Positions 20,246 through 62,322 of a stretch of DNA of 64,000 nucleotides are shown piece after piece; within the stretch, counting starts at the first letter, position 1; each line of letters opens with the position of its first letter. The position numbers and the translations under genes were made by a program. The DNA comes from Escherichia phage KKP 3954. The stretch is taken from the sequence record OR067838.1. The stretch is one strand, 5' to 3'. The notes under the pieces were generated by a model. The model saw only the letters and a program-made list of their open reading frames with translations. It was not told the DNA's origin and ran no database searches.

Positions 20246-20644
20246 TTATTTTTTACGAAGGGAACGTTTTTTAGCTGGAGTGTCTACCGCTTCTACTTTT
20301 AAAACTTCTTCTTTGATTTTTACAGGTGCATAGTCTTCGTAACTTACAAGATAGTAACCCATGTGTTCTTCACTTGCAAAAGGATGCACAAGAATACCTG
20401 TTTCTTCTCTCAAACGCGTGAGGAAGTGAATGAAGTTTCCACCTAATGCAATACGACCATCTTTCAGATAGAAAGACATTGGTGGCGCAGATACTAATGT
20501 TTTATCAGCATCAATCAGTGGTGAAAGCGATTCGAAATCACGAATCATTTCGTGATAACTAAAGTAACGTTTCAATTCTGGGTTTGACATATCAATCTCC
20601 TCATTGTAAACTCTTGTTGTAAACAGAAAAGGCTCGCCCATCAC
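20246..20644 (-). CDS. hypothetical protein
   Basis: 132-aa ORF downstream of major capsid. Confidence 0.3.
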   Translation of the reverse strand: MMGEPFLFTTRVYNEEIDMSNPELKRYFSYHEMIRDFESLSPLIDADKTLVSAPPMSFYLKDGRIALGGNFIHFLTRLREETGILVHPFASEEHMGYYLVSYEDYAPVKIKEEVLKVEAVDTPAKKRSLRKK

Positions 20645-20674
20645 GGACGAGCCTCTAATATTAACAGAGTTCTG

Positions 20675-21676
20675 TTAAGCCGTAGTCAGTTTAACTACCA
20701 GTTCTGGACGGGTGTTAACTGCGAGCAGCGAGAATTCAGACTGAAGCTGAATGGTGCGGTGCTGGCTGATCATGAAGGTATACAGTTCACGAGCCTGGGT
20801 GTTAGCCAGTTCTGGAGTATCCGCAGGAGCGTAGTGCGCCTGGAACATACCTTCGATACCCATAGGCAGAACATATGCTTCACCAGCAGGGATGTTACCG
20901 TGGATATCTTCAATGTAAGTTACACCGTTCCATTCGAACACCTGAACATCCATGTTACCGCTAAGGCGGTCACGCAGAAGGTTAGGAGTTCCCTGGAAAT
21001 ACTGATATGCCTGGCGAACAAATGGAGAGTTAACCAGAGATGCGAAAAATTCACGAGAACACAGAGCTACGATACGGGTAGCGGTAGAGCCATCTTGTTT
21101 AGTATCGATGATGTAAGCACGAGCTTCTTGTTCGATAGTGGCTGCTGGAGAAACAGTGGTAGAAGCAAAGTCTACAGCAACAGATTTCTGGGTAGCACCC
21201 CATTCGGTATACCAGTTGTATGCAGAGTTAGCTGCACCACCTACGCCGTTATAGGCACGACCCATAACTGCTTCTGCAAAGATTTTCTCTTTGGTTTTTG
21301 CTACGTCACGCAGAATCTGGGACATATAGCGGTTAACAACTTCAGCGTCTGTGCGCAGAGAGTCATTGATTCCTGCCATCGCAAAGCTACGGAAAGATTG
21401 AATATCTTGAGCTTTGATGTTTTTATCCAGAGGGAAGAACGGAATACGGAACGCTTTCAGTTCTGGATTTTTCATGGTCAGGAAGTTACGCTCACCACCA
21501 CGCTCACGAGCGGAGATCAGAGCATCTTCAGCTTTTTCTTTACCGATTTCAATAGCGGTAGTTGAATGATAGTCAACGCTGAACAGATTCAGGCTGGCAA
21601 TCAGTGTATCAGGGGAATCCTGAAGTTCGATCATAGGGCTGAAATCTACAACCTGATCTAAAATTACTGCTGGCAT
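20675..21676 (-). CDS. major capsid protein, lambda gpE-like family
   Basis: 333 aa; C-terminal block PMGIEGMFQAHYAPADTPELANTQARELYTF resembles lambda E (NTQAR). Confidence 0.65.
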   Translation of the reverse strand: MPAVILDQVVDFSPMIELQDSPDTLIASLNLFSVDYHSTTAIEIGKEKAEDALISARERGGERNFLTMKNPELKAFRIPFFPLDKNIKAQDIQSFRSFAMAGINDSLRTDAEVVNRYMSQILRDVAKTKEKIFAEAVMGRAYNGVGGAANSAYNWYTEWGATQKSVAVDFASTTVSPAATIEQEARAYIIDTKQDGSTATRIVALCSREFFASLVNSPFVRQAYQYFQGTPNLLRDRLSGNMDVQVFEWNGVTYIEDIHGNIPAGEAYVLPMGIEGMFQAHYAPADTPELANTQARELYTFMISQHRTIQLQSEFSLLAVNTRPELVVKLTTA

Positions 21677-21697
21677 TATATTAATCTCCTATTAAAA

Positions 21698-21973
21698 TTA
21701 AGAAGTGAAAACGACTTTTTCGGTCAGTTTCAGATCATGTGTTTCCAGTGCTGCTACGCCAGCGTCATCTACCAGGGAGCCATCTTTGTAGTATACTGCA
21801 AAGCGGTTCAGAGTAAGATCACGTACGCCAACAACTGCGGTGAAAGTGTCACCTACTGCTACATCATCAATACCGAACAGAGCATCAGTCCAAATCAGAA
21901 CTTTAGCAGCATCGGCAGCTTCAGCTTTAGCAGCTTCAGTGTTGTCAGCTTTCAGGATAGAACCAATTTTCAT
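21698..21973 (-). CDS. small head protein (decoration-like)
   Basis: 91 aa between scaffold and capsid. Confidence 0.3.
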   Translation of the reverse strand: MKIGSILKADNTEAAKAEAADAAKVLIWTDALFGIDDVAVGDTFTAVVGVRDLTLNRFAVYYKDGSLVDDAGVAALETHDLKLTEKVVFTS

Positions 21974-22117
21974 GGTTGCTGTTTTAACCAGGTTAACTTC
22001 ACGTATACACAGTGTCCAAGGTCAGAGCTAAACACTCCACCCAGAACCAGGTGTCCGAATTCCTGGCGAGAGTTAGATAAAGTAATTCCTTTAGCCATTT
22101 AATTTAATCTCCTAAGA

Positions 22118-23233
22118 TTATTGTTTCTGGGCTTTTTTAAGTTCAGCAGCTTTCTGACTAATCAGTTCAGAAGAAGATTTAGCTACAGGTTGAGTATTGA
22201 TCACATCAACACCACGTTCTGCTCCAAATTCTTTCTTAACTGCGTCCACTTCTGCACGTGCTTTTTCGAATGCTTTGACGATAGTTTCAGCGATATCTTT
22301 ATTATCTACCAGATATTTAACGAGAGCTTCAACTTTGTCTTCTTCTACGAAAGAATAGGATTTAACAACAGTTGTATATTCTTCTTCGATACGAGCTTGT
22401 TCAGCTTTACGAAGTTCTTCTGCTTCCTGTTCTGCCTTAGCGATTTTTTCCTGTGCTTCAAGTTCTGCGGCTGCACGTGCATCTGCGGCTGCTTTTTCTA
22501 CAGCTTCAGCGATCTGTGCTTTCATCAGTTCTTGGAATTCAGCAGATTTCAGGAATTCTTCTTTGTTGATATTTTCCAAAGGGGTTTCTCCTTTATTGAT
22601 TCCAGTTGTGTTTGCAGATTTATCACCTGCGGGGTTAGCCTCTGCATCCACAGAGTTTGTATTAGCTTTAGCGTGAGCTTTCACTAAATAATCTTTAACT
22701 TGACTTTGTTTCAAGGAACTCTTAACGAGATTACTCAAAGCATCGTCTAAAACGTCCTCAAAGAAATCAATGGAGATCATTACATCACCATCAACAACTT
22801 GATAATCAGTAACACGAACAACAGGTTTAGCAACCTCTTCAACTTCAACATTCAGTCCGTCAACTTTAAAGCCAACAGAGAACATACCGTTATCTGAACA
22901 GAAAATTGCAACGTTCGCATCGAAGTCAGCATCAATAACGTAAACCCAATCCCAACCAGCTTCAAATTTTTCACGCACTTTTTCAGAGATGCGATCCATC
23001 ACTTGTTGAATATAGCTTTTACGTAACTCTGTAACATCTTCTCCCATTTTAGTGAGAGCTTCTAACTTTTCAAAAGTTATGTCTGGAGATCCGTCTGACT
23101 TAAATAAAAGGGGGGTATTATAACCAGATGCCGCTCCACCTTGAAAATCAAAAGTGTAAGCAATATGAGCACCTAGTGACTCTTCCGTAGCTTTTCCTGA
23201 AAAGTCTACGTTAGTTAAATATGTATTTGCCAC
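22118..23233 (-). CDS. capsid scaffolding protein
   Basis: 371 aa, acidic, long Ala/Glu/Lys coiled-coil C-region. Confidence 0.5.
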   Translation of the reverse strand: MANTYLTNVDFSGKATEESLGAHIAYTFDFQGGAASGYNTPLLFKSDGSPDITFEKLEALTKMGEDVTELRKSYIQQVMDRISEKVREKFEAGWDWVYVIDADFDANVAIFCSDNGMFSVGFKVDGLNVEVEEVAKPVVRVTDYQVVDGDVMISIDFFEDVLDDALSNLVKSSLKQSQVKDYLVKAHAKANTNSVDAEANPAGDKSANTTGINKGETPLENINKEEFLKSAEFQELMKAQIAEAVEKAAADARAAAELEAQEKIAKAEQEAEELRKAEQARIEEEYTTVVKSYSFVEEDKVEALVKYLVDNKDIAETIVKAFEKARAEVDAVKKEFGAERGVDVINTQPVAKSSSELISQKAAELKKAQKQ

Positions 23234-51863: not shown

Positions 51864-52349
51864 ATGCGCTATCTGGTAACAGGTGGTCTTGGTTTTATTG
51901 GGAGCGCCGTGGTGCGCTCTCTTTGTCAAGATCCTAATAACGAAGTTTTTATCATTGATAAAATGGGTTATGCAGCAGACATTGAGAATGTAGGTGATAT
52001 CACTCACGCTAAACTAAGCATGACAGATTTGGCAAACGAAGCCCAGGTCAAAAGTTTAGTAGTAGAGTGCAATCCCGATTTCATCATTCACTTAGCGGCA
52101 GAGAGCCATGTGGATAATTCTATCAAGAATCCACGAGCTTTCATCGACTCCAATATTATTGGTACATACAATTTATTGGAAGCTGCAAGGCTCCTCCCAA
52201 AGAATAAACTGAAGATGTTCATACACGTCTCCACAGACGAAGTGTATACGGTGATATGGCAGACTCTGGCGTTCCCTTTACCGAAGAGACAGCTTATGCC
52301 CCTTCAAGCCCGTACAGTGCGTCTAAGGCAGCATCTGACCATCTTGTGA
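51864..52349 (+). CDS. rmlB: dTDP-glucose 4,6-dehydratase, N-terminal fragment
   Basis: Rossmann GGLGFIGS; reads through HVSTDEVY then leaves frame. Confidence 0.75.
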   Translation: MRYLVTGGLGFIGSAVVRSLCQDPNNEVFIIDKMGYAADIENVGDITHAKLSMTDLANEAQVKSLVVECNPDFIIHLAAESHVDNSIKNPRAFIDSNIIGTYNLLEAARLLPKNKLKMFIHVSTDEVYTVIWQTLAFPLPKRQLMPLQARTVRLRQHLTIL

Positions 52350-52858
52350 AAGCTTGGCACCGTACCTACGATTTACCTGTTGTGATAACCAACTGCTCCA
52401 ATAACTTTGGACCCTATCAACATCCAGAAAAGCTGATCCCAAAAATCATCACAAGTATCTTGACGAATAAAGAGATTCCGGTGTATGGTAAAGGCGATCA
52501 GGTGCGAGACTGGCTTTTTGTTGAGGATCATGCGCGAGCTATTCTTCAAGTGGCAACAGGTGGAGAACCAGGTAAAACGTATAATGTGGGAACACGTAAT
52601 CCCAAAACCAATATGGAGATCATCTATATGGTTTGTGACTACATGGATGCTGTACATCCAGAAGCAGGAACCTACCCTTCTTCCAACTTGATAACTTTTG
52701 TTGAAGATCGTAAAGGGCATGACTTGCGTTATGAAATCAATCCTTCTAAGATAGAGTTTGAACTGGGTTGGAGTGCAAACTCTACATTTGAACAAGATCT
52801 CTACTCAACGATTGAATGGTACTTAAACAACCCTCAATGGTGGAGTGGGAAGATTTAA
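52256..52858 (+). CDS. rmlB: dTDP-glucose 4,6-dehydratase, C-terminal fragment
   Basis: Continues VYGDMADSG...[13 protein letters not shown] (YxxxK) in shifted frame. Confidence 0.75.
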
Positions 52859-52866
52859 GGAGGGCT

Positions 52867-53745
52867 ATGAAAGGTATTATTTTGGCGGGAGGAAGTGGAA
52901 CCCGCCTTCATCCGGTAACACGCAGTGTGAGCAAGCAATTGCTCCCTGTGTATGACAAACCCATGATCTACTACCCTTTATCGGTATTGATGTTGGCTGA
53001 CATTAAGGATATCTTAATCATTACCACACCAGGCGATCAGGAAGACTTTGAGTATCTTCTCGGAGATGGGTCTATGTTTGGGATAAAACTCACTTACGCA
53101 ATCCAATCCGAGCCACGAGGTCTTGCGGACGCTTTCATCATCGGTAAAGATTTTATCGGAGAAGACTCTGTTGCTCTTATTTTAGGTGACAACCTATTCT
53201 TCGGACAAAGCTTTGGTAAACTACTGATTAACGCCAGTGAGATGGTAGATGTTTGTGGCGGAGCTTGTATCTTCGGGTATTTGGTGAAAGATCCTGAACG
53301 ATTCGGTGTGGTTGAATTTGGGAGTAATCGTCAAGCTATTTCTATTGAAGAGAAACCTGAAAATCCTAAATCAGATTATGCTGTCACAGGTTTGTATTTC
53401 TATGATAACTCTGTTGTTCAACGTGCATTAGAAGTAACCCCTTCCGCGCGTGGAGAACTGGAGATCACAGATATCAATCGCAGCTACCTCGAAGACAGGA
53501 AGTTACAAGTGGAAGTTCTCGGACGAGGATTTACTTGGCTTGACACAGGAACACACGCCAGTCTGATGGAAGCTGGTCAATTCGTGCAGACTATTGAGAA
53601 CCGTCAAGGATTGAAGATTGCGTGCCTGGAAGAAATTGCTTTCAAAAAAGGGTGGATTTCTTTAGAGACTTTGTTGTATCATGGAAACTCACTGAAGAAA
53701 ACAGAATACGGGCAATACCTACTCAAATTAGCGGAGAGAAAATGA
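52867..53745 (+). CDS. rmlA: glucose-1-phosphate thymidylyltransferase
   Basis: [32 protein letters not shown], near-identical blocks to enterobacterial RfbA. Confidence 0.9.
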
Positions 53746-54308
53746 AAGTAGAAAAAACAAAAATTGAAGGTGCGGTAATTATCAAACCAGACGTTTATAA
53801 AGATGATCGTGGTTTCTTTTTAGAAACATATAATGAACAAAAATACGAAGATATCATTGGTAGACAAACTTTCGTTCAAGATAACATGTCTAAATCAAAC
53901 TTCGGTGTTTTGCGAGGAATGCACTTTCAAACAAATAATCCGCAAGGTAAGCTTGTTCGTTGTGTAAGTGGGGAAGTATTGGATTTCGCTGTAGACCTAC
54001 GTAAAGATAGTCCTACTTACGGTGCTTGGGACGGTGTTGTTCTTCGTGCACGACACCATACACAGTTCTGGCTTCCACCTGGTTTGGCACATGGTTTTAT
54101 AGTGCTGAGTATGGATGCTATCTTCGAATACAAATGCACAACTCCATACGACCCTTCCAGCGAACAAAGTTTACGTTGGGATGATCCTGATATAGGGATT
54201 GATTGGGGCTTCGATATGATTTTTGACGAAGATTTTAAACCTATCTTATCAACAAAAGATGCAATGGCTAAGTCTTTTCAACAGCTACGTAGCGAGGGTG
54301 TATGCTAA
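53742..54308 (+). CDS. rmlC: dTDP-4-dehydrorhamnose 3,5-epimerase
   Basis: ATG overlaps rmlA stop; RGMHFQ cupin motif. Confidence 0.8.
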
Positions 54309-55144
54309 CATATCTGGTATTGGGTGGTAATGGACAACTGGGACAAGCTTTACGTAAAGTGGCTCCTTCAAATGTGTCTTTAATTTATCCTAAAGAACGT
54401 GTAGATATTACAAATTTTGAAGCTGTGCGAAACGCTATTGTTGAAGATTATGTAGATGGTGTTATTAATTGCGCTGCTTATACGGCTGTAGATAAAGCAG
54501 AACATGATTTTGCTACTGCTTTGGCTGTTAATGCCTATGGCCCTGCAAATACTGCGGCAGTGTGCAGCAAACTTAAAATTGATTTTGTGCATATTTCTAC
54601 AGACTATATTTTTAATTATTCTCATCCTATTTTTGAAGATACTACACCTAACCCAATAAACAATTATGGGTATACGAAAGAACTTGGTGAAAAAATGGTG
54701 CGAGGAGTTAACCCAAATGCATATATTATTCGAACAGCCTCGGTATATAGCGAATTTGGAAATAACTTTCTAAAAACCATGTTGTCTCGCTATAATGATG
54801 GACAACGTGATTTTATTATTGTTGCTGATCAGTTCTCTTGTCCAACATATGCCCCAGATTTAGCAGAAGCTATTTTTGAAGTATTAAAAACAGGTTGGTC
54901 AAGATCTGTAAAGACTTACCATTTTGCAGGAAGCCATCTTATTTCTTGGGCGGAGTTTGCGGAAAAGATCTTGACACAGATGCCAGAACCTGTTAAGATA
55001 TCGGCGGTATCAGCTTCAACCTATAATGCTCCAGCAGCACGTCCGGTGAAGTCACAATTAGTAACCAGTCACTATCTTACAAAATCAGATTTAAATAAAG
55101 GTATTGAACGGTCTTTAGCAGTATTACTTAATAAGGAGAGGTAA
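54302..55144 (+). CDS. rmlD: dTDP-4-dehydrorhamnose reductase
   Basis: 280 aa, N-terminal GGNGQLG Rossmann motif, operon position. Confidence 0.75.
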   Translation: MLTYLVLGGNGQLGQALRKVAPSNVSLIYPKERVDITNFEAVRNAIVEDYVDGVINCAAYTAVDKAEHDFATALAVNAYGPANTAAVCSKLKIDFVHISTDYIFNYSHPIFEDTTPNPINNYGYTKELGEKMVRGVNPNAYIIRTASVYSEFGNNFLKTMLSRYNDGQRDFIIVADQFSCPTYAPDLAEAIFEVLKTGWSRSVKTYHFAGSHLISWAEFAEKILTQMPEPVKISAVSASTYNAPAARPVKSQLVTSHYLTKSDLNKGIERSLAVLLNKER

Positions 55145-56067: not shown

Positions 56068-56104
56068 TAAAGGGGCTTCGGCCCCTTCTAAAAGGAGTGC
56101 TACT

Positions 56105-56863
56105 ATGGGAAATAAAACCGCAGCTAAAACACAACGGCAGAAACTGGCTAATTCAGCAAAGATTGAAAGCCGTTATGCAGCAAAAGCGGTAGGTAATGAC
56201 GATTACCGTTTAGATGAATTTATGCCTGAAGGGGACCAAAATAAGATTGTTCAAAGCATGATTTGGAATGATCTGACTGTTGTAAATGCTCCGGCAGGGA
56301 CTGGTAAAACCTCTGTTGCTTTATGGAAAGCTTTGCAGATGCTTCGTTCAGGAGACTTCCGTAAACTACTTTTTATCAAGAACCCTACTGAAGTCGGAGA
56401 TGATCAGATTGGTTTCTTGTCTGGGGATAAAACAGATAAACTAGCAGCACACTATGAATCTACAAAACGTATTTTCCAGCAATTCATGACAGCCAACAAA
56501 TTGGAAAACGATATTGGATCAGGTAAGATCGAATTGAATATTCCTAACTATTTGTTGGGAGCTACCCTGGATAATACAATTGTCATTATTGACGAAGCAC
56601 AACTTATGTCAACAGAAACACTTAAACTTCTTATTGAACGTGCAGGTATTAATACGCATGTTATTGTATTAGGCGATGTTCGCCAGACATATGCAATTAA
56701 AAAACGTAGCAATGGTCTGCATCAAATTTTGGAACTTTTATATCCAGAAAATGAAGAAGGTGTTCGTGAGCCAATTGTAGATTTTATTGGATATGTTGAA
56801 CTGACAACGGACGATAATAAACGTGGACGTTTGTCTAAACTGATTACTGAAGTGTTTATTTAA
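56105..56863 (+). CDS. phoH: PhoH-like ATPase
   Basis: Walker A APAGTGKT and Walker B IIDEAQ; ATG with RBS (track uses upstream alt start 56054). Confidence 0.8.
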   Translation: MGNKTAAKTQRQKLANSAKIESRYAAKAVGNDDYRLDEFMPEGDQNKIVQSMIWNDLTVVNAPAGTGKTSVALWKALQMLRSGDFRKLLFIKNPTEVGDDQIGFLSGDKTDKLAAHYESTKRIFQQFMTANKLENDIGSGKIELNIPNYLLGATLDNTIVIIDEAQLMSTETLKLLIERAGINTHVIVLGDVRQTYAIKKRSNGLHQILELLYPENEEGVREPIVDFIGYVELTTDDNKRGRLSKLITEVFI

Positions 56864-56898: not shown

Positions 56899-57399
56899 AT
56901 GGGTGTAGCAACAATAGCTATCGGAAGAAGCGGTATAGATGAGTGCTATCAAACGGGACTCGTAAAACCTAACGAATTTCGTCAAATTTGTGTAAACCAT
57001 ATTGAAAAAGAGATTGCTCTTACTTTAGAGAATATGACCCTCCGAGATAAACTGGAAATGTTTAAATGTTGGTGTCTAGGAGAAGATTGGCTTTTAAACC
57101 ATTTTCAAGAACTTTCTGATAGTAAAGAAAGCTTGTTTGATTGTATAATAGGAATAGCTGGCTCCGATCCTAGCCTTCTGCACATAACAGAAGAAGAGGC
57201 GAAGTTACTGTTCTTAAGTAATTTGTTTAATAAGAAAGCACTGCTTGTTCGTGATTGCAGTGATCTTCTTAATAACCCGCTCGCAACGTCTGATCAAATT
57301 TTTGTTGACAAAGAGACACTACGTGCGATAGAATACATCTGCAAATATGTGAATGGCGGGAAAGCGGTTCTTAAAACATTAACAGAGGAGGAAGAATAG
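56899..57399 (+). CDS. hypothetical protein upstream of HslV-like gene
   Basis: 167 aa, translationally coupled to next gene. Confidence 0.3.
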   Translation: MGVATIAIGRSGIDECYQTGLVKPNEFRQICVNHIEKEIALTLENMTLRDKLEMFKCWCLGEDWLLNHFQELSDSKESLFDCIIGIAGSDPSLLHITEEEAKLLFLSNLFNKKALLVRDCSDLLNNPLATSDQIFVDKETLRAIEYICKYVNGGKAVLKTLTEEEE

Positions 57400-58091
57400 T
57401 GACGACAATTATTGCAACCAAAAATAAGATTTTGAGTGACGGTAAGGTAACTTTTGGTGGACGTGTAGATTCTATTAATTTCAAAAAGGTCCGAAAAATT
57501 GGAGATTACCTTGTAGGTGGTGCTGGTCGTCTGACCTCCGTGCTTTCTTTCTTTCAATGGTTTGAACAAAATCTACAGTGCGAAGCAGCACGTGATGCTG
57601 TCCCTGGTTTGATGATTCACTCTGATCCAGATAAAGAAGATGAAGAGTTTATTGCACTTGTTGTTCATCCTGACGGACGTATTTTCCTGCACGAAGGTAA
57701 CAACCCAACACGTGCATATCCGATTGATGAAGAATATTATGCGGTAGGAAGCGGGTCAGACTTTGCTTTAGCTGCTCTTGATGCAGGGGCAACACCAGAA
57801 CAGGCTATGGAAGTAGCTAAAAAGCGAGATGCTTTTTCTGGTGGTGAAACATTTGTTGAAGAACAAGATGAGATTATTGAATTAACAGACGATGATTTAG
57901 AAAACTTCTCCAAAGAAGAATTGATCAATCTTTTGAAATTCGGTAATCCCTACGGTGAAGAAGAACCTCGTAACGTGGCAGGTAACGAGGCGGATACTGA
58001 AGAAAAATCTGTTGCAGAAAACAACTTGACTTCTAAATCTGAAAATATTAATCTCGTAAATGTGGCGGATTTCGAAGGAACCGCTATTTAA
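57399..58091 (+). CDS. HslV/ClpQ-like Ntn-hydrolase peptidase
   Basis: MTTIIA N-terminus, KKVRKI, GGAGRLTSVLSFFQWFE and YAVGSGSDFALAA parallel E. coli HslV; acidic C-terminal tail. Confidence 0.6.
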   Translation: MTTIIATKNKILSDGKVTFGGRVDSINFKKVRKIGDYLVGGAGRLTSVLSFFQWFEQNLQCEAARDAVPGLMIHSDPDKEDEEFIALVVHPDGRIFLHEGNNPTRAYPIDEEYYAVGSGSDFALAALDAGATPEQAMEVAKKRDAFSGGETFVEEQDEIIELTDDDLENFSKEELINLLKFGNPYGEEEPRNVAGNEADTEEKSVAENNLTSKSENINLVNVADFEGTAI

Positions 58092-58096
58092 CAAAC

Positions 58097-58118
58097 TGCC
58101 CCTTCGGGGGCATTTCTT
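58097..58118 (+). terminator. rho-independent terminator
   Basis: TGCCCC-TTCG-GGGGCA plus TTTCTT. Confidence 0.5.
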
Positions 58119-58218
58119 AAACATAGGAGATTAATAATGTTACAAGTTCCTGCTAAGTTTGTTGAAGGCGCTATCCACTCTTACCGTCAAACATGTAAGA
58201 GGGCAAGAAACTGTTTAG

Positions 58219-58572
58219 ATGGTCTGGTGGCAAAAACCTATACTGTTGAAAAAGAAAAAACGTTGGTTTGGCAAAGATGTTTACGAAGTTAATATTTTTG
58301 GTGAACATAAACTAAACCACGATACTCCTGAAAACATGTTAGAAATATTTCTAAGAGATGACAAAATATCTCCTATGGATTACCAACTTTTAAAATTTTA
58401 TGATTCTTCTTTGGCTATTGATAAGTTTGTTGAAGATATTCTGTCTAGAAAAACAGATAAAAACACTTATCCTCTAGAGGCTGATCAAATAGGATTATTA
58501 AACGAGATTTCATCCTTTAAAGAGTTGGATAATATTACAAAAGAGGAGATTTTAGATGGCATTAGATTATGA
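58219..58572 (+). CDS. hypothetical protein; probably starts at ATG 58137 before a frameshift
   Basis: ORF from 58137 (RBS AGGAG) joins this frame at an A6 run near 58250. Confidence 0.3.
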   Translation: MVWWQKPILLKKKKRWFGKDVYEVNIFGEHKLNHDTPENMLEIFLRDDKISPMDYQLLKFYDSSLAIDKFVEDILSRKTDKNTYPLEADQIGLLNEISSFKELDNITKEEILDGIRL

Positions 58573-59563: not shown

Positions 59564-59758
59564 ATGCAGAGCGGAGAAGAACTTTTAGAGAAACAATTCT
59601 CAACGCGTCAACAAGCTTTAAGTTATATGGTTTTTCTAAGCAATCTTGATGTGAATGAGATACTTTTACGGCGCGAAGGTAATTTCTGGAGCGTTAAATA
59701 CCATGCAACAAGATCTGTAATCTACCTAGAAGAGGCGGAATTCTCTTTGGTAGAATGA
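59564..59758 (+). CDS. hypothetical protein
   Basis: 64-aa ORF. Confidence 0.3.
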   Translation: MQSGEELLEKQFSTRQQALSYMVFLSNLDVNEILLRREGNFWSVKYHATRSVIYLEEAEFSLVE

Positions 59759-60345
59759 TCCGAGGAGTAGTTATGCGTTCAACTTTCACTGGCAAAATAA
59801 ACGCTGGTTTAATTTTTACCGCAGTAAGCATTCTTAGCAAAAAGTTTAAAGTTGTTAACTTACCTGTGTGTGTCGATTTCGATCATGTCTTTGATCCTTC
59901 GAACCCCACTCGTTGCATAGTAAGGAGTAATGTTGAAAACCCAACAGAAAATCTTTTTTATGTAACAAAACCATCTCAAAGCATACTTAACCAGGTTGAG
60001 GCGAAATTGATACCTAACGGTAAATATTACTCCTTTTTACCTTGCAAGTCGGTTGAAGTAGAGAATAGCAATACTTTCGCTAACAACTTGTCTGTATTCG
60101 TTTTCTTTGTTTCGCACGAAGATGAAACAGATGAAATGGTAGCAACAGTGAGATCACTTTATGACTCTTTAGGGGTTGTTTATAGACAACAAGTGTGCGA
60201 AAATAATAAAGCTTGTGTAGATTTCATTATCAACGGTATTTGTGTTTGTAGAGTAGAATCTTTTTGGCTGCACGATACATATGTGACTGTAGCAGAGGTT
60301 ATATCTGAACCAAAATTTAGTCATGCGGTTTCGTTAATAATTTGA
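59755..60345 (+). CDS. hypothetical protein
   Basis: 196-aa ORF. Confidence 0.3.
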   Translation: MIRGVVMRSTFTGKINAGLIFTAVSILSKKFKVVNLPVCVDFDHVFDPSNPTRCIVRSNVENPTENLFYVTKPSQSILNQVEAKLIPNGKYYSFLPCKSVEVENSNTFANNLSVFVFFVSHEDETDEMVATVRSLYDSLGVVYRQQVCENNKACVDFIINGICVCRVESFWLHDTYVTVAEVISEPKFSHAVSLII

Positions 60346-60355
60346 GGAGGAAGGA

Positions 60356-60685
60356 ATGGAAATTACTACAGAACAAGCCCTTATCGACGAGGGTCGTAAA
60401 ATCTTAGAAAAGCATTTAGGGGAGATTCATAAAACTCCTGGCTATTTGGGTTGGAGAATTGTTGAAGCTGTAGATTTCCTTCCTCGTAACAGTAAAAGCG
60501 TCGAAATGCGATCTCTTTTCTTATTAGTAAAGGTGGATGGGGATACACCTTTTAAAGATGCCGCAGAGCATATTGAAAAAGTTGAAGAGAAAGCTTATGC
60601 AGAATTTGCCGATCTTGTTTTAGAACAAAAGATTGAAGGAAAGGTGAATATTTTTATTTTCTTAGATTTTGAGGAGGATAAGTGA
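60356..60685 (+). CDS. hypothetical protein
   Basis: 109-aa ORF. Confidence 0.3.
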   Translation: MEITTEQALIDEGRKILEKHLGEIHKTPGYLGWRIVEAVDFLPRNSKSVEMRSLFLLVKVDGDTPFKDAAEHIEKVEEKAYAEFADLVLEQKIEGKVNIFIFLDFEEDK

Positions 60686-61425
60686 TCATACATAGAGAAA
60701 TTACTGTTAAAAGCGATCAAGATCTTTTTATAATTGGAGATCTACACGGTTGTTATAATTTGTATGAAAAAGGAAAGGCAAAGTTAGGTATCCGAGATAC
60801 AGATGTAGTTGTATCTTTAGGAGATCTTACTGACCGTGGAAAGCAAAACTTTCGTTGTGTTTTAGAATTTACTCGTAAACACAATCGCTACGCTATTCGT
60901 GGAAATCATGAAGACATGATGATTAAAGGTATGCTGGAAGGAGATCGTAGCTACTTCGAGTGTTGGTATCAAAATGGAGGATATACAGTCCTTGAAGAAT
61001 GTGGTGAAGAAGGAGCTACAGCCTTAGCAATGATGACAGAAGATTTACCTGTTGTTCTCATTGTTAACTACAGAGGCATGAAACTTGCGTTTATTCATGG
61101 TGGGTATCCATCTTCTTTGGAATATCTCCCTGTAACAGATATTCCAGAATACACTTTGAAGATGACAAAAACACAGGAAAACCGTTTTGCTGAAGCACTT
61201 ATGTGGGACAGAGATATGGTGGACTGTGCTAAAGAGGGAATGAAACTTCCTGTTGTGATGGGTGTGGACTATGTGTTTCATGGACACTCTTATGTAAAAA
61301 CACCTATTATCAATGCGAATCGTGTTTATATGGATACTGGATCTGTGTTCAATAATAACTTAACATTTGCTTATTTCGATATGGACGGTGGTCTTCAATT
61401 TTATTCAACTCTTGAGGAGGATTAA
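60682..61425 (+). CDS. PPP-family Ser/Thr protein phosphatase
   Basis: GDLHG, GDLTDRG, GNHE motifs. Confidence 0.65.
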   Translation: MIIHREITVKSDQDLFIIGDLHGCYNLYEKGKAKLGIRDTDVVVSLGDLTDRGKQNFRCVLEFTRKHNRYAIRGNHEDMMIKGMLEGDRSYFECWYQNGGYTVLEECGEEGATALAMMTEDLPVVLIVNYRGMKLAFIHGGYPSSLEYLPVTDIPEYTLKMTKTQENRFAEALMWDRDMVDCAKEGMKLPVVMGVDYVFHGHSYVKTPIINANRVYMDTGSVFNNNLTFAYFDMDGGLQFYSTLEED

Positions 61426-61733
61426 TGTATAAGATTACAATTATTCAAAGTGTAGGTAATATCCGTAAAGAAGTTATCTTAGAAACAGAAGATGTTAATC
61501 TTGTTCGTGAGATTGTTTTTAAGGAAGATAACCTGCAAGCTGTAGAATCGGATGCACCGAATCTTATGGTGGATCAAGAATATTCTGAACTTCGTCGTAT
61601 TTTTGAAGAGATTCAGAAGAAAGAAACACAACCTACCATAAAACCTTTTGGTCCTTATGATCCGAGCAATCCTAGCAGTCCTTGGATCATGAGAAATACA
61701 GAACCATATACACCTTTTGAAATTACTTGCTGA
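61425..61733 (+). CDS. hypothetical protein
   Basis: 102-aa ORF. Confidence 0.3.
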   Translation: MYKITIIQSVGNIRKEVILETEDVNLVREIVFKEDNLQAVESDAPNLMVDQEYSELRRIFEEIQKKETQPTIKPFGPYDPSNPSSPWIMRNTEPYTPFEITC

Positions 61734-61740
61734 GGTGTTT

Positions 61741-62322
61741 ATGGCAGAATTGTTTTATACGGGAGTTGGAAGTAGAGACATCTCCGAAGAAGAGTGGGCT
61801 TTGATGGTAGGCATAGGGAAATGGCTTTCCAACCTTGGGTTTAAATTAAGGTCTGGGAAGGCAGAGGGTAGTGATTCTGCTTTTGAAACAGGTGTCCAAG
61901 AGTCTGAAAATCCTACTAACAAGGAGATTTATGTTCCTTGGGAAAATTTCAAAGGTAATCAGATTCCAGGTGATGTTATTGTTCTTGCAAAACCAGATAC
62001 AATGAACTATGCTATCTCTGTGCAATGGATCAAAGATGTTCACCCAGCTTATGAAAAGCTTAAGCAGGGTGCTAGAAAATTGCACCAACGTAATGTGCAT
62101 CAGGTGTTAGGTAAAGATTTGGAGAATCCTGCTCCATCATGTTTCTTGTTGGCTTGTGCCGATACTGATAAACACGGAGATGCAAAAGGCGGAACAGCTA
62201 CGGCTTGGAAGATAGCTAAAGCAAATAATGTTCCTTGTTTAAACATTCGTGGGAGAACAAAACAAGAGATTTATGATTTTCTACGACCTTTGGTAATGAG
62301 GGCAATAACAAGTGATTCCTAA
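61741..62322 (+). CDS. Rossmann-like SLOG/DprA-like protein
   Basis: YTGVGSRD and SGKAEGSDSAFE motifs. Confidence 0.3.
   Translation: MAELFYTGVGSRDISEEEWALMVGIGKWLSNLGFKLRSGKAEGSDSAFETGVQESENPTNKEIYVPWENFKGNQIPGDVIVLAKPDTMNYAISVQWIKDVHPAYEKLKQGARKLHQRNVHQVLGKDLENPAPSCFLLACADTDKHGDAKGGTATAWKIAKANNVPCLNIRGRTKQEIYDFLRPLVMRAITSDS

Follow-up and report, generated by a model that had tools for sequence, protein, structure and literature searches.

A survey by Fuchs, Alva and Lupas (Bioinformatics 2021, PMC8665760) added 22 groups to the known proteasome homologues, among them PPH, whose members are about 140 residues long and occur in tailed phages, and RPC, listed for Proteobacteria only. PPH and RPC alone lack helix H2, are also without a propeptide, and had neither an AAA+ partner nor a gene context nor a function found for them in that survey, while the C-terminal domains of RPC matched no known structure and are probably oriented away from the ring (published references WP_042125023.1 for PPH and WP_140207863 for RPC). 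In true HslV, the pocket for the HslU tail is lined by Phe54, Phe57, Ala79, Lys80 and Gln114, of which Ala79 and Lys80 are supplied by helix H2, and the activating peptides of HslU are EDLSRFIL and DLAKYIL (PMC6429459). This study focused on a gene at positions 57399-58091, plus strand, of a stretch of 64,000 nucleotides (the window) from Escherichia phage KKP 3954 (record OR067838.1), the product of which had been called, in a preliminary description made from the sequence alone, an HslV/ClpQ-like protease with an acidic C-terminal extension. Sequence comparison and a structural model identify it as a phage-encoded protein homologous to HslV and to proteasome beta subunits, with the alpha-beta-beta-alpha N-terminal nucleophile (Ntn) fold. 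It is not an orthologue of HslV, and fits the PPH/RPC branch as a long-form member.

The resemblance to HslV stood in profile, sequence and fold searches alike, including the profile search and structure prediction that the preliminary description had named as checks. Against phrog_1040 ('peptidase HslV family'), residues 1-229 aligned with profile positions 14-247 of 277 (expectation value (E) 9.7e-64, 216.6 bits), and the Pfam Proteasome profile (PF00227) was matched above its threshold (25.6 bits; gathering score 22.4). A phmmer search of the PDB placed 13 HslV sequences on top (T. maritima, E 5e-9; E. coli, E about 5e-5), followed by proteasome beta5 (E 0.17) and BPH (E 1.1). The AlphaFold monomer model, built with 65 homologues, had a mean predicted local distance difference test (pLDDT) score of 83 and a predicted template-modelling score (pTM) of 0.70, with most of the core above a pLDDT of 90. 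Its best Foldseek matches were HslV chains (E about 1e-10, target-normalised TM score 0.66-0.70, 24-27% identity), then 20S beta subunits and BPH, the range for HslV and 20S beta together being E 1e-10 to 1e-8. The gene and the parts of its product that are discussed below are as follows.

57399..58091, plus strand: HslV-like/proteasome-like N-terminal-threonine peptidase gene; GTG start, 230 amino acids, stop codon included (open reading frame (ORF) list and sequence)
57402..57404, plus strand: codon of Thr2, the predicted catalytic nucleophile Thr1 after removal of the initiator Met (alignment with E. coli HslV)
57438..57488, plus strand: Asp14 (= Asp17) to Lys30 (= Lys33), the remaining members of the predicted catalytic triad (alignments)
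57600..57647, plus strand: acidic coil, residues 68-83 (PGLMIHSDPDKEDEEF), in place of the canonical HslV helix H2 and pore loop (AlphaFold model)
57747..57845, plus strand: Gly117-Ser118-Gly119 (= HslV Ser124/proteasome Ser129) to Arg143-Asp144-x-x-Ser147-Gly-Gly149 (alignments)
57879..57962, plus strand: conserved part of the extension, residues 161-188 (ELTDDDLENFSKEELINLLKFGNPYGEE), with two short helices predicted (motif regular expression and model)
57963..58088, plus strand: variable acidic tail, residues 189-230, predicted to be disordered (pLDDT and alignment)

Conservation was followed in two alignments, A1 with 21 sequences (the window protein, HslV from the E. coli K-12 genome and 19 relatives) and A2 with 65 homologues. 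In A1, T2, D14, K30, G43 and G117-S118-G119 were invariant and G40 nearly so; the E. coli HslV counterparts are T1 (T2), D17 (D14), K33 (K30), G45 (G40) and S124 (S118). The N-terminus, MTTIIATKNK..., had been taken earlier to carry a Thr nucleophile behind the initiator Met, and T2 indeed aligns with Thr1 of HslV; loss of the Thr1 or Lys33 equivalents, which would have spoken against the identification, was not seen, as both T2 and K30 are invariant in A1. In A2, G117-S118-G119 and D144 were invariant, and S147-G148-G149, T2, D14, K30, G43 and G40 were nearly so, as were M1-T2-T3. Where E. coli HslV reads GDICIYTN, the phage protein has RDAFSGG (143-149), which matches RDAYSGG, the Asp166/Ser169 motif of human beta5, in BLASTP; D14 and K30 likewise align with D17 and K33 of beta5. 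As aligned, the catalytic residue set is intact (equivalents of Thr1, Asp17, Lys33, Gly-Ser-Gly and RDxxSGG), and the C-terminal half of the active site appears, if anything, nearer to that of the proteasome than to that of HslV.

An active site of this type might also belong to an Ntn enzyme that does not degrade proteins, either a protein ligase or transpeptidase like connectase, or an amidase that processes one target. The proteasome-like family does include connectase, a monomeric ligase, and new quaternary structures and functions are expected within it (PMC8665760); the loss of H2 and the presence of a C-terminal module could shift both assembly and specificity, and some GenBank records say just 'nucleophile aminohydrolase'. 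The phage protein, however, keeps the full proteasome-type residue set, including the Asp166 and Ser169 equivalents, it lacks the S3-S4 insertion that covers the active site and defines connectase (the model has short turns only), and its closest relatives are true proteases. A non-degradative role is considered decidedly unlikely.

The same comparisons separate the peptidase from HslV proper, in which helices H1-H4 form two pairs, two hexameric rings stack into a dodecamer, and the AAA+ unfoldase HslU is both co-encoded and the working partner. Scores against the NCBIfam HslV equivalogs (TIGR03692/PRK05456) were 31.4 and 32.2 bits, below the respective cut-offs of 157.75 and 137. In the AlphaFold model a single long helix (residues 45-67) is followed by a coil (68-83, pLDDT about 75) and a strand (84-89), without a helix H2. 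Searches with E. coli HslU (tblastn, E<=10) gave no hslU match in the 64-kb window, nor in 150,000 of the 150,925 bases of the 99.5%-identical phage ZCKP1. Because the equivalog scores are far below the cut-offs, H2 is absent from the model and no phage hslU was found, the protein is not regarded as an HslV/ClpQ orthologue. The label 'HslV/ClpQ-like' describes a resemblance well enough, but membership in HslV proper fails on all three of these features. The accompanying remark that no HslU-like AAA+ partner lies adjacent agrees with the empty searches in the window and in ZCKP1.

A phage without its own HslU might instead use that of the host, the peptidase serving as an alternative core, its hexameric rings binding to E. 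coli HslU in place of, or in competition with, host HslV. If this were true, ATP-dependent degradation would be redirected during infection. HslV is the closest characterised relative in both sequence and fold, the hosts all encode HslUV (as at the E. coli locus), and the pocket residues contributed by helix H1 are partly retained, E. coli F54/F57 being L49/F52 in A1. The pocket has counterparts at these H1 positions only, however, and H2, the source of Ala79 and Lys80, is missing. Lys28 of E. coli HslV, presumably the contact for the C-terminal carboxylate of HslU, aligns with Ser25, a variable position. Identity to HslV is 22-27%, far under the equivalog cut-offs, and the published PPH/RPC survey was without an AAA+ association (PMC8665760). 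With H2 absent and Lys28 not kept, pairing with host HslU is not supported, and it is judged unlikely.

Since the loss of H2, the lack of a propeptide and the presence of a C-terminal extension match the published description of PPH/RPC, the peptidase fits this branch as a long-form member, a placement made by architecture, including that of the model. 'PPH/RPC-type phage proteasome homologue' is accordingly a more accurate name than HslV. An exhaustive search of 1.84 billion cluster representatives returned 2350 related clusters at E<=1e-3, which included many MTT proteins of 128-160 residues (36-44% core identity) as well as MTT forms of 260-330 residues. Many MTT proteins of 130-150 residues matched the peptidase at E 1e-10 to 1e-16, and the relatives reached 379 residues. 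In a lookup of ten clusters, WP_042125023.1 and WP_140207863 were not among the accessions returned. When species-representative bacterial genomes were scanned with a single peptide pattern, the long form was met on one 425-bp contaminant-like contig only, the remainder being remote relatives with 23-36% identity and one 50% match over 36 residues; the scan says little more than that bacterial genomes do not commonly carry the long form. The 425-bp contig, from the assembly of Lysobacteraceae bacterium JHOS43, corresponds to residues 68-208 of the peptidase at 99% identity and is most likely coliphage contamination of that assembly.

Beyond the HslV core, the extension comprises about 70 residues (161-230) and not about 50, as had been estimated. 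It had also been described as rich in Asp and Glu, and it is acidic (18/70 residues, 26%; isoelectric point 4.05), but only moderately so and not simply of low complexity. Its first part contains a helical motif that is conserved in the family, LTxExLxxFSKEELxxLL; residues 161-188 (ELTDDDLENFSKEELINLLKFG...) hold the pattern (S/T)(K/R)xE(L/I)(L/I/V)xx-hydrophobic-hydrophobic. A regular expression for this motif hit 101 of 233 relatives, almost all with 180 residues or more and some at 35-45% identity; the expression missed the window protein itself, although the motif is clearly there. The AlphaFold model has helices at 164-169 and 172-181 (pLDDT 85-89), residues 189-214 have a pLDDT below 50, and the tail varies in sequence and length among close homologues. 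Family members of 183-186 residues stop just past the motif.

The motif bears a short resemblance to the HslU activating peptides, which raises the idea of self-activation: the C-terminal helix would mimic the HslU peptide in the inter-subunit pocket, in cis or in trans, and keep the enzyme 'on' without HslU. SKEELINLL (SKEELVRYIF in relatives) can be set beside EDLSRFIL and DLAKYIL, conservation of the motif extends through the long forms, and packing of the helix is predicted with good confidence. Loss of Lys28 would be expected for an internal mimic, if that residue presumably holds the HslU carboxylate. Yet a short, amphipathic motif may well show such likeness by chance, and the aromatic position, critical in HslU tails, varies within the phage family. 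The motif is equally like a generic helix-N-cap or HeH/Rho_N-like motifs (the extension of one relative gave a weak Rho_N match, E 0.008), the pocket itself is remodelled through the loss of H2, and the short members of about 140 residues do not have the helix at all. Self-activation is therefore rated very unlikely. Some relatives of 280-379 residues carry an additional C-terminal domain (P0061, P0062 [L012 6001-7140], P0063 and P0068), with a CxxC pair (KYKGVCGKCG) in P0061-P0063 and a Trp-rich end conserved in all four, P0068 included; the family's C-terminus is thus a place for the addition of modules.

The gene is preceded by two others with which it appears to form a three-gene unit. The features around it are the following.

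56069..56088, plus strand: GC-rich hairpin AAAGGGGC-TTCG-GCCCCTTT, between the lysozyme stop and the PhoH start (scan, reported on the minus strand)
56105..56863, plus strand: PhoH-like P-loop ATPase, first gene of the apparent three-gene unit (PF02562, E 1e-36; phrog_170)
56899..57399, plus strand: X, the translationally coupled upstream gene, 166 amino acids (ATG at 56899; phrog_14834, no assigned function)
57385..57391, plus strand: Shine-Dalgarno sequence GAGGAGG, 7 nucleotides 5' of the peptidase GTG (from sequence)
58097..58118, plus strand: intrinsic-terminator-like hairpin TGCCCC-TTCG-GGGGCA, then TTTCTT (terminator scan and sequence)

The ORF at 57399-58091, reported in the preliminary description together with a coupled upstream ORF and PhoH, was recovered with its GTG start and 230 residues, and so were both neighbours: the GTG shares one base with the TAG stop of X (TAGTG), and PhoH matches PF02562. 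The start of PhoH in RefSeq corresponds to window position 56105-56106, approximately, by coordinate mapping from ZCKP1 and by sequence. The terminator-like hairpin begins 6 nucleotides 3' of the peptidase stop codon. The stable hairpin at 56069-56088 has no T-run on the plus strand, so is not a clear terminator, and may mark where the unit begins at its 5' end or act in RNA processing or stability; in Klebsiella phage FBKp34, a promoter is annotated at the equivalent site.

All three genes lie in a same-strand block that comprises the ribonucleotide reductase large and small subunits, glutaredoxin, (the rml genes), lysozyme, PhoH, X and the peptidase, and is continued by a methyltransferase, a phosphatase and a DprA-like gene. 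This position, far from the portal and head genes, points to an early/middle metabolic or takeover gene. A role as prohead or virion-maturation protease was considered and rejected on the same grounds; the expected spot for a maturation protease or scaffold, between the portal and head genes, is occupied by a 371-residue ORF without a Pfam match ('hypothetical protein'). Neither the peptidase nor X was matched by the anti-phage defence models of PADLOC.

The gene order recurs beyond the immediate relatives. Lysozyme, PhoH, an ORF of 136-170 residues and the peptidase follow each other in FBKp34 (48% identity) and Vibrio phage VnaP (34%), and also in three phages from metagenomes (41-58%). Aeromonas phage PAc (41%) has PhoH about 2.5 kb upstream, separated from the 136-residue ORF by other ORFs, and in Shewanella phage 1/40 (31%) the peptidase is directly next to PhoH, with X absent. 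PhoH is thus found 0-2.5 kb upstream of the long-form peptidase in Stephanstirmvirinae and in Vibrio, Shewanella, Aeromonas and metagenomic phages, and the block common to the PhoH-linked phages reads ribonucleotide reductase, glutaredoxin, lysozyme, PhoH, ..., ligase. No PhoH was found near the short PPH-type genes of Caulobacter and Rhizobium phages. Homologues of X (phrog_14834) can be recognised clearly to about 30% identity. Among themselves, the ORFs that precede the most distant long forms are homologous (E 3e-10), and they share with X one C-terminal motif, VDKETLRAxE, at the same position and over 18-33 residues; hhalign comparison with X was not significant (E 0.025-0.037, probability 1-2%), and a relationship by sequence is suggestive only. 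The model of X is mostly helical (pLDDT 90.7), and no fold match was found for it.

This recurrence invites the view that the PhoH ATPase, X and the peptidase make up a three-component machine, in which X would bridge the ATPase to the C-terminal helices, for example to remodel or degrade, at the expense of ATP, a target that is a nucleoprotein or is associated with RNA. Stephanstirmvirinae preserve the order PhoH-X-peptidase at 45-100% identity, and it is found, with small insertions, in VnaP, a 135-kb metagenomic phage and PAc, with PhoH adjoining the peptidase in 1/40; the stop of X overlaps the peptidase start, hairpins stand on both sides of the unit, and the mutually homologous distant ORFs share their C-terminal motif with X. 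The relatives of PhoH-like proteins, however, are superfamily 1 (SF1) helicases and the PhoH2 RNA helicase rather than protein unfoldases. The Caulobacter and Rhizobium genes do without a nearby PhoH, the PhoH-linked cases all share the larger block and may have inherited the linkage with it, and X is not significantly similar to the distant upstream ORFs. Such a machine is held to be improbable.

One further ATPase came to light outside the window. ZCKP1 gp193 (20437-21576, L011) is a classic AAA ATPase of 379 residues (PF00004, E 9e-7), the best PDB matches of which are Rix7, Afg2 and VCP-like ATPases of the AAA+ unfoldase type (E about 1e-3); beside it, gp194 (21665-23125) has CapR repeat domains. 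It is the only candidate for a phage unfoldase in ZCKP1. As the unfoldase of the peptidase it was set aside, having no specific link to it: it also turns up in hundreds of phages of Enterococcus, Bacillus, Staphylococcus and others, which are absent from the HslV-like matches.

Taken together, the reading that is preferred, and that is thought somewhat better than an even guess, is that of an active N-terminal-threonine peptidase of early to mid infection, probably self-assembling, with no dedicated unfoldase and with outward C-terminal helices for docking or regulation. Catalytic competence is predicted from homology, fold and the intact residues. The gene would be co-transcribed with PhoH and X, inside the block for nucleotide metabolism and host takeover. 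Host methionine aminopeptidase would strip the initiator Met and expose the Thr nucleophile, with Asp14, Lys30, Ser118, and Asp144 plus Ser147 completing a proteasome-type active site. The subunits may then assemble into a ring-type compartment that would need no AAA+ unfoldase of its own to cleave peptides, or unfolded or disordered proteins, inside the infected cell. The conserved helices, pointing outward, could serve as the docking or regulatory module, for which X would be the likeliest binding partner. Homology, fold, the catalytic constellation, gene arrangement and synteny are shown by the analysis, as are the missing H2 and the lack of a phage HslU in the sequence searched; how the enzyme oligomerises, whether it does without an unfoldase, what its substrates are, and what the extension and X do are inferred.

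Several points weigh against this reading. Canonical HslV alone is nearly inactive, and an activator may perhaps still be required; the host provides HslU, ClpX and ClpA, and the phage genome itself holds one classic AAA ATPase, the gp193 just described. The linkage of PhoH, X and the peptidase may have been inherited through the larger syntenic block rather than being functional. The model is that of a monomer, so ring formation is hypothetical, and the loss of H2 could alter assembly; some proteasome homologues may not form rings, connectase being a monomeric ligase (PMC8665760).

A bolder version would make the long form and X, perhaps with PhoH, an undescribed virus-specific proteolytic module, free of HslU, in which the conserved C-terminal helix acts as a built-in activator or a dock for X and which degrades specific host proteins at takeover. 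As a whole this is unlikely.

The source phage is a phAPEC8-like Escherichia phage of the genus Phapecoctavirus, Stephanstirmvirinae, and about 58 GenBank phages of that genus match the 3.1 kb around the peptidase gene at 99.4-99.6% identity. Many of these records name the gene 'peptidase HslV family', 'HslV family peptidase', 'ATP-dependent protease subunit' or 'putative 20S proteasome', and RefSeq phages carry the first of these labels for the same protein. An identical protein has been deposited since phAPEC8 (AFU62667.1) and is present on 393 contigs; tblastn found homologues in 235 phage records. The gene is already known: dozens of public phage genomes have it annotated, and a description of its family appeared in 2021. 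A literature search for a functional study of phage HslV-like proteins returned annotation mentions alone, and no member of PPH/RPC has been biochemically characterised, the sole survey of the group having found neither partner, gene context nor function. Viruses that bear such a peptidase are of real biological interest. What is added here is a complete proteasome-type active site, as predicted, in the long form of a coliphage, the helical motif of the C-terminal extension and its conservation in the family, and the recurrent PhoH-X-peptidase arrangement. Since the phage grows on E. coli K-12, knock-outs and biochemistry should be straightforward.

Elsewhere in the window, some observations are worth recording. 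Just 3' of the peptidase, the phrog_15078 gene (58137-58572) is one ORF of 435 nucleotides in ZCKP1 and is spread over two frames here (58137-58292 and 58219-58572), with one extra A near 58250 (GAAAAAG versus GAAAAG in ZCKP1); the split reflects either a true frameshift or a sequencing error in the homopolymer. A set of rml (dTDP-rhamnose) genes lies at 51864-55144. Its rmlB-like dehydratase falls into two ORFs that overlap, 51864-52349 (PF16363 positions 1-133) and 52256-52858 (positions 139-327), and is followed by rmlA (52816-53745), rmlC (53742-54308) and rmlD (54302-55144); at this site ZCKP1 has rmlC-like and rmlD-like genes only. Among the early genes further downstream, by mapping of the ZCKP1 annotation, the ORF at 59755-60345 (196 residues) is a 'histidyl tRNA synthetase' in RefSeq, for which it is too short to be a real synthetase, and a NinI-like Ser/Thr phosphatase (60682-61425) and a DprA-like gene (61717-62322) were placed in the same way.

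The relationship of the peptidase to the described systems can be drawn as follows. With HslV (ClpQ) it shares the MTT N-terminus, the lack of a propeptide, a core of similar size and the equivalents of Asp17, Lys33, Gly45 and Ser124, and HslV is its best match among solved structures. In contrast to HslV, to which it is 22-27% identical, it lacks H2 and a conserved Lys28 equivalent, has the RDxxSGG motif and a 70-residue C-terminal extension, and is not accompanied by a phage hslU in the sequence searched. The Ntn alpha-beta-beta-alpha fold is common to it and to 20S beta, BPH and Anbu; the Thr1/Asp17/Lys33/Ser129/Asp166/Ser169 constellation is the same as in 20S beta, an acidic loop stands at the pore-loop position as in BPH, and the lack of a dedicated AAA+ partner is shared with BPH and Anbu. 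Sequence matches to 20S beta and BPH are much weaker than those to HslV, however, and the peptidase has neither a propeptide nor an alpha-type partner subunit; it is also smaller than 20S beta, BPH and Anbu, without H2 and without an H5 or coiled-coil C-terminus. Like PPH, the peptidase is encoded by a tailed phage, and in common with the PPH/RPC group it has Thr1 directly after Met and a Thr1/Asp17/Lys33 core; H2 is missing both from the published group and, independently, from the peptidase model, neither has an evident AAA+ partner, and the extension is of no known fold, as in RPC. At 230 residues the peptidase is much longer than PPH (about 140), its long form is carried by phages, whereas RPC was listed for Proteobacteria only, and, where the survey recorded no conserved gene context, the PhoH-X-peptidase arrangement recurs here.

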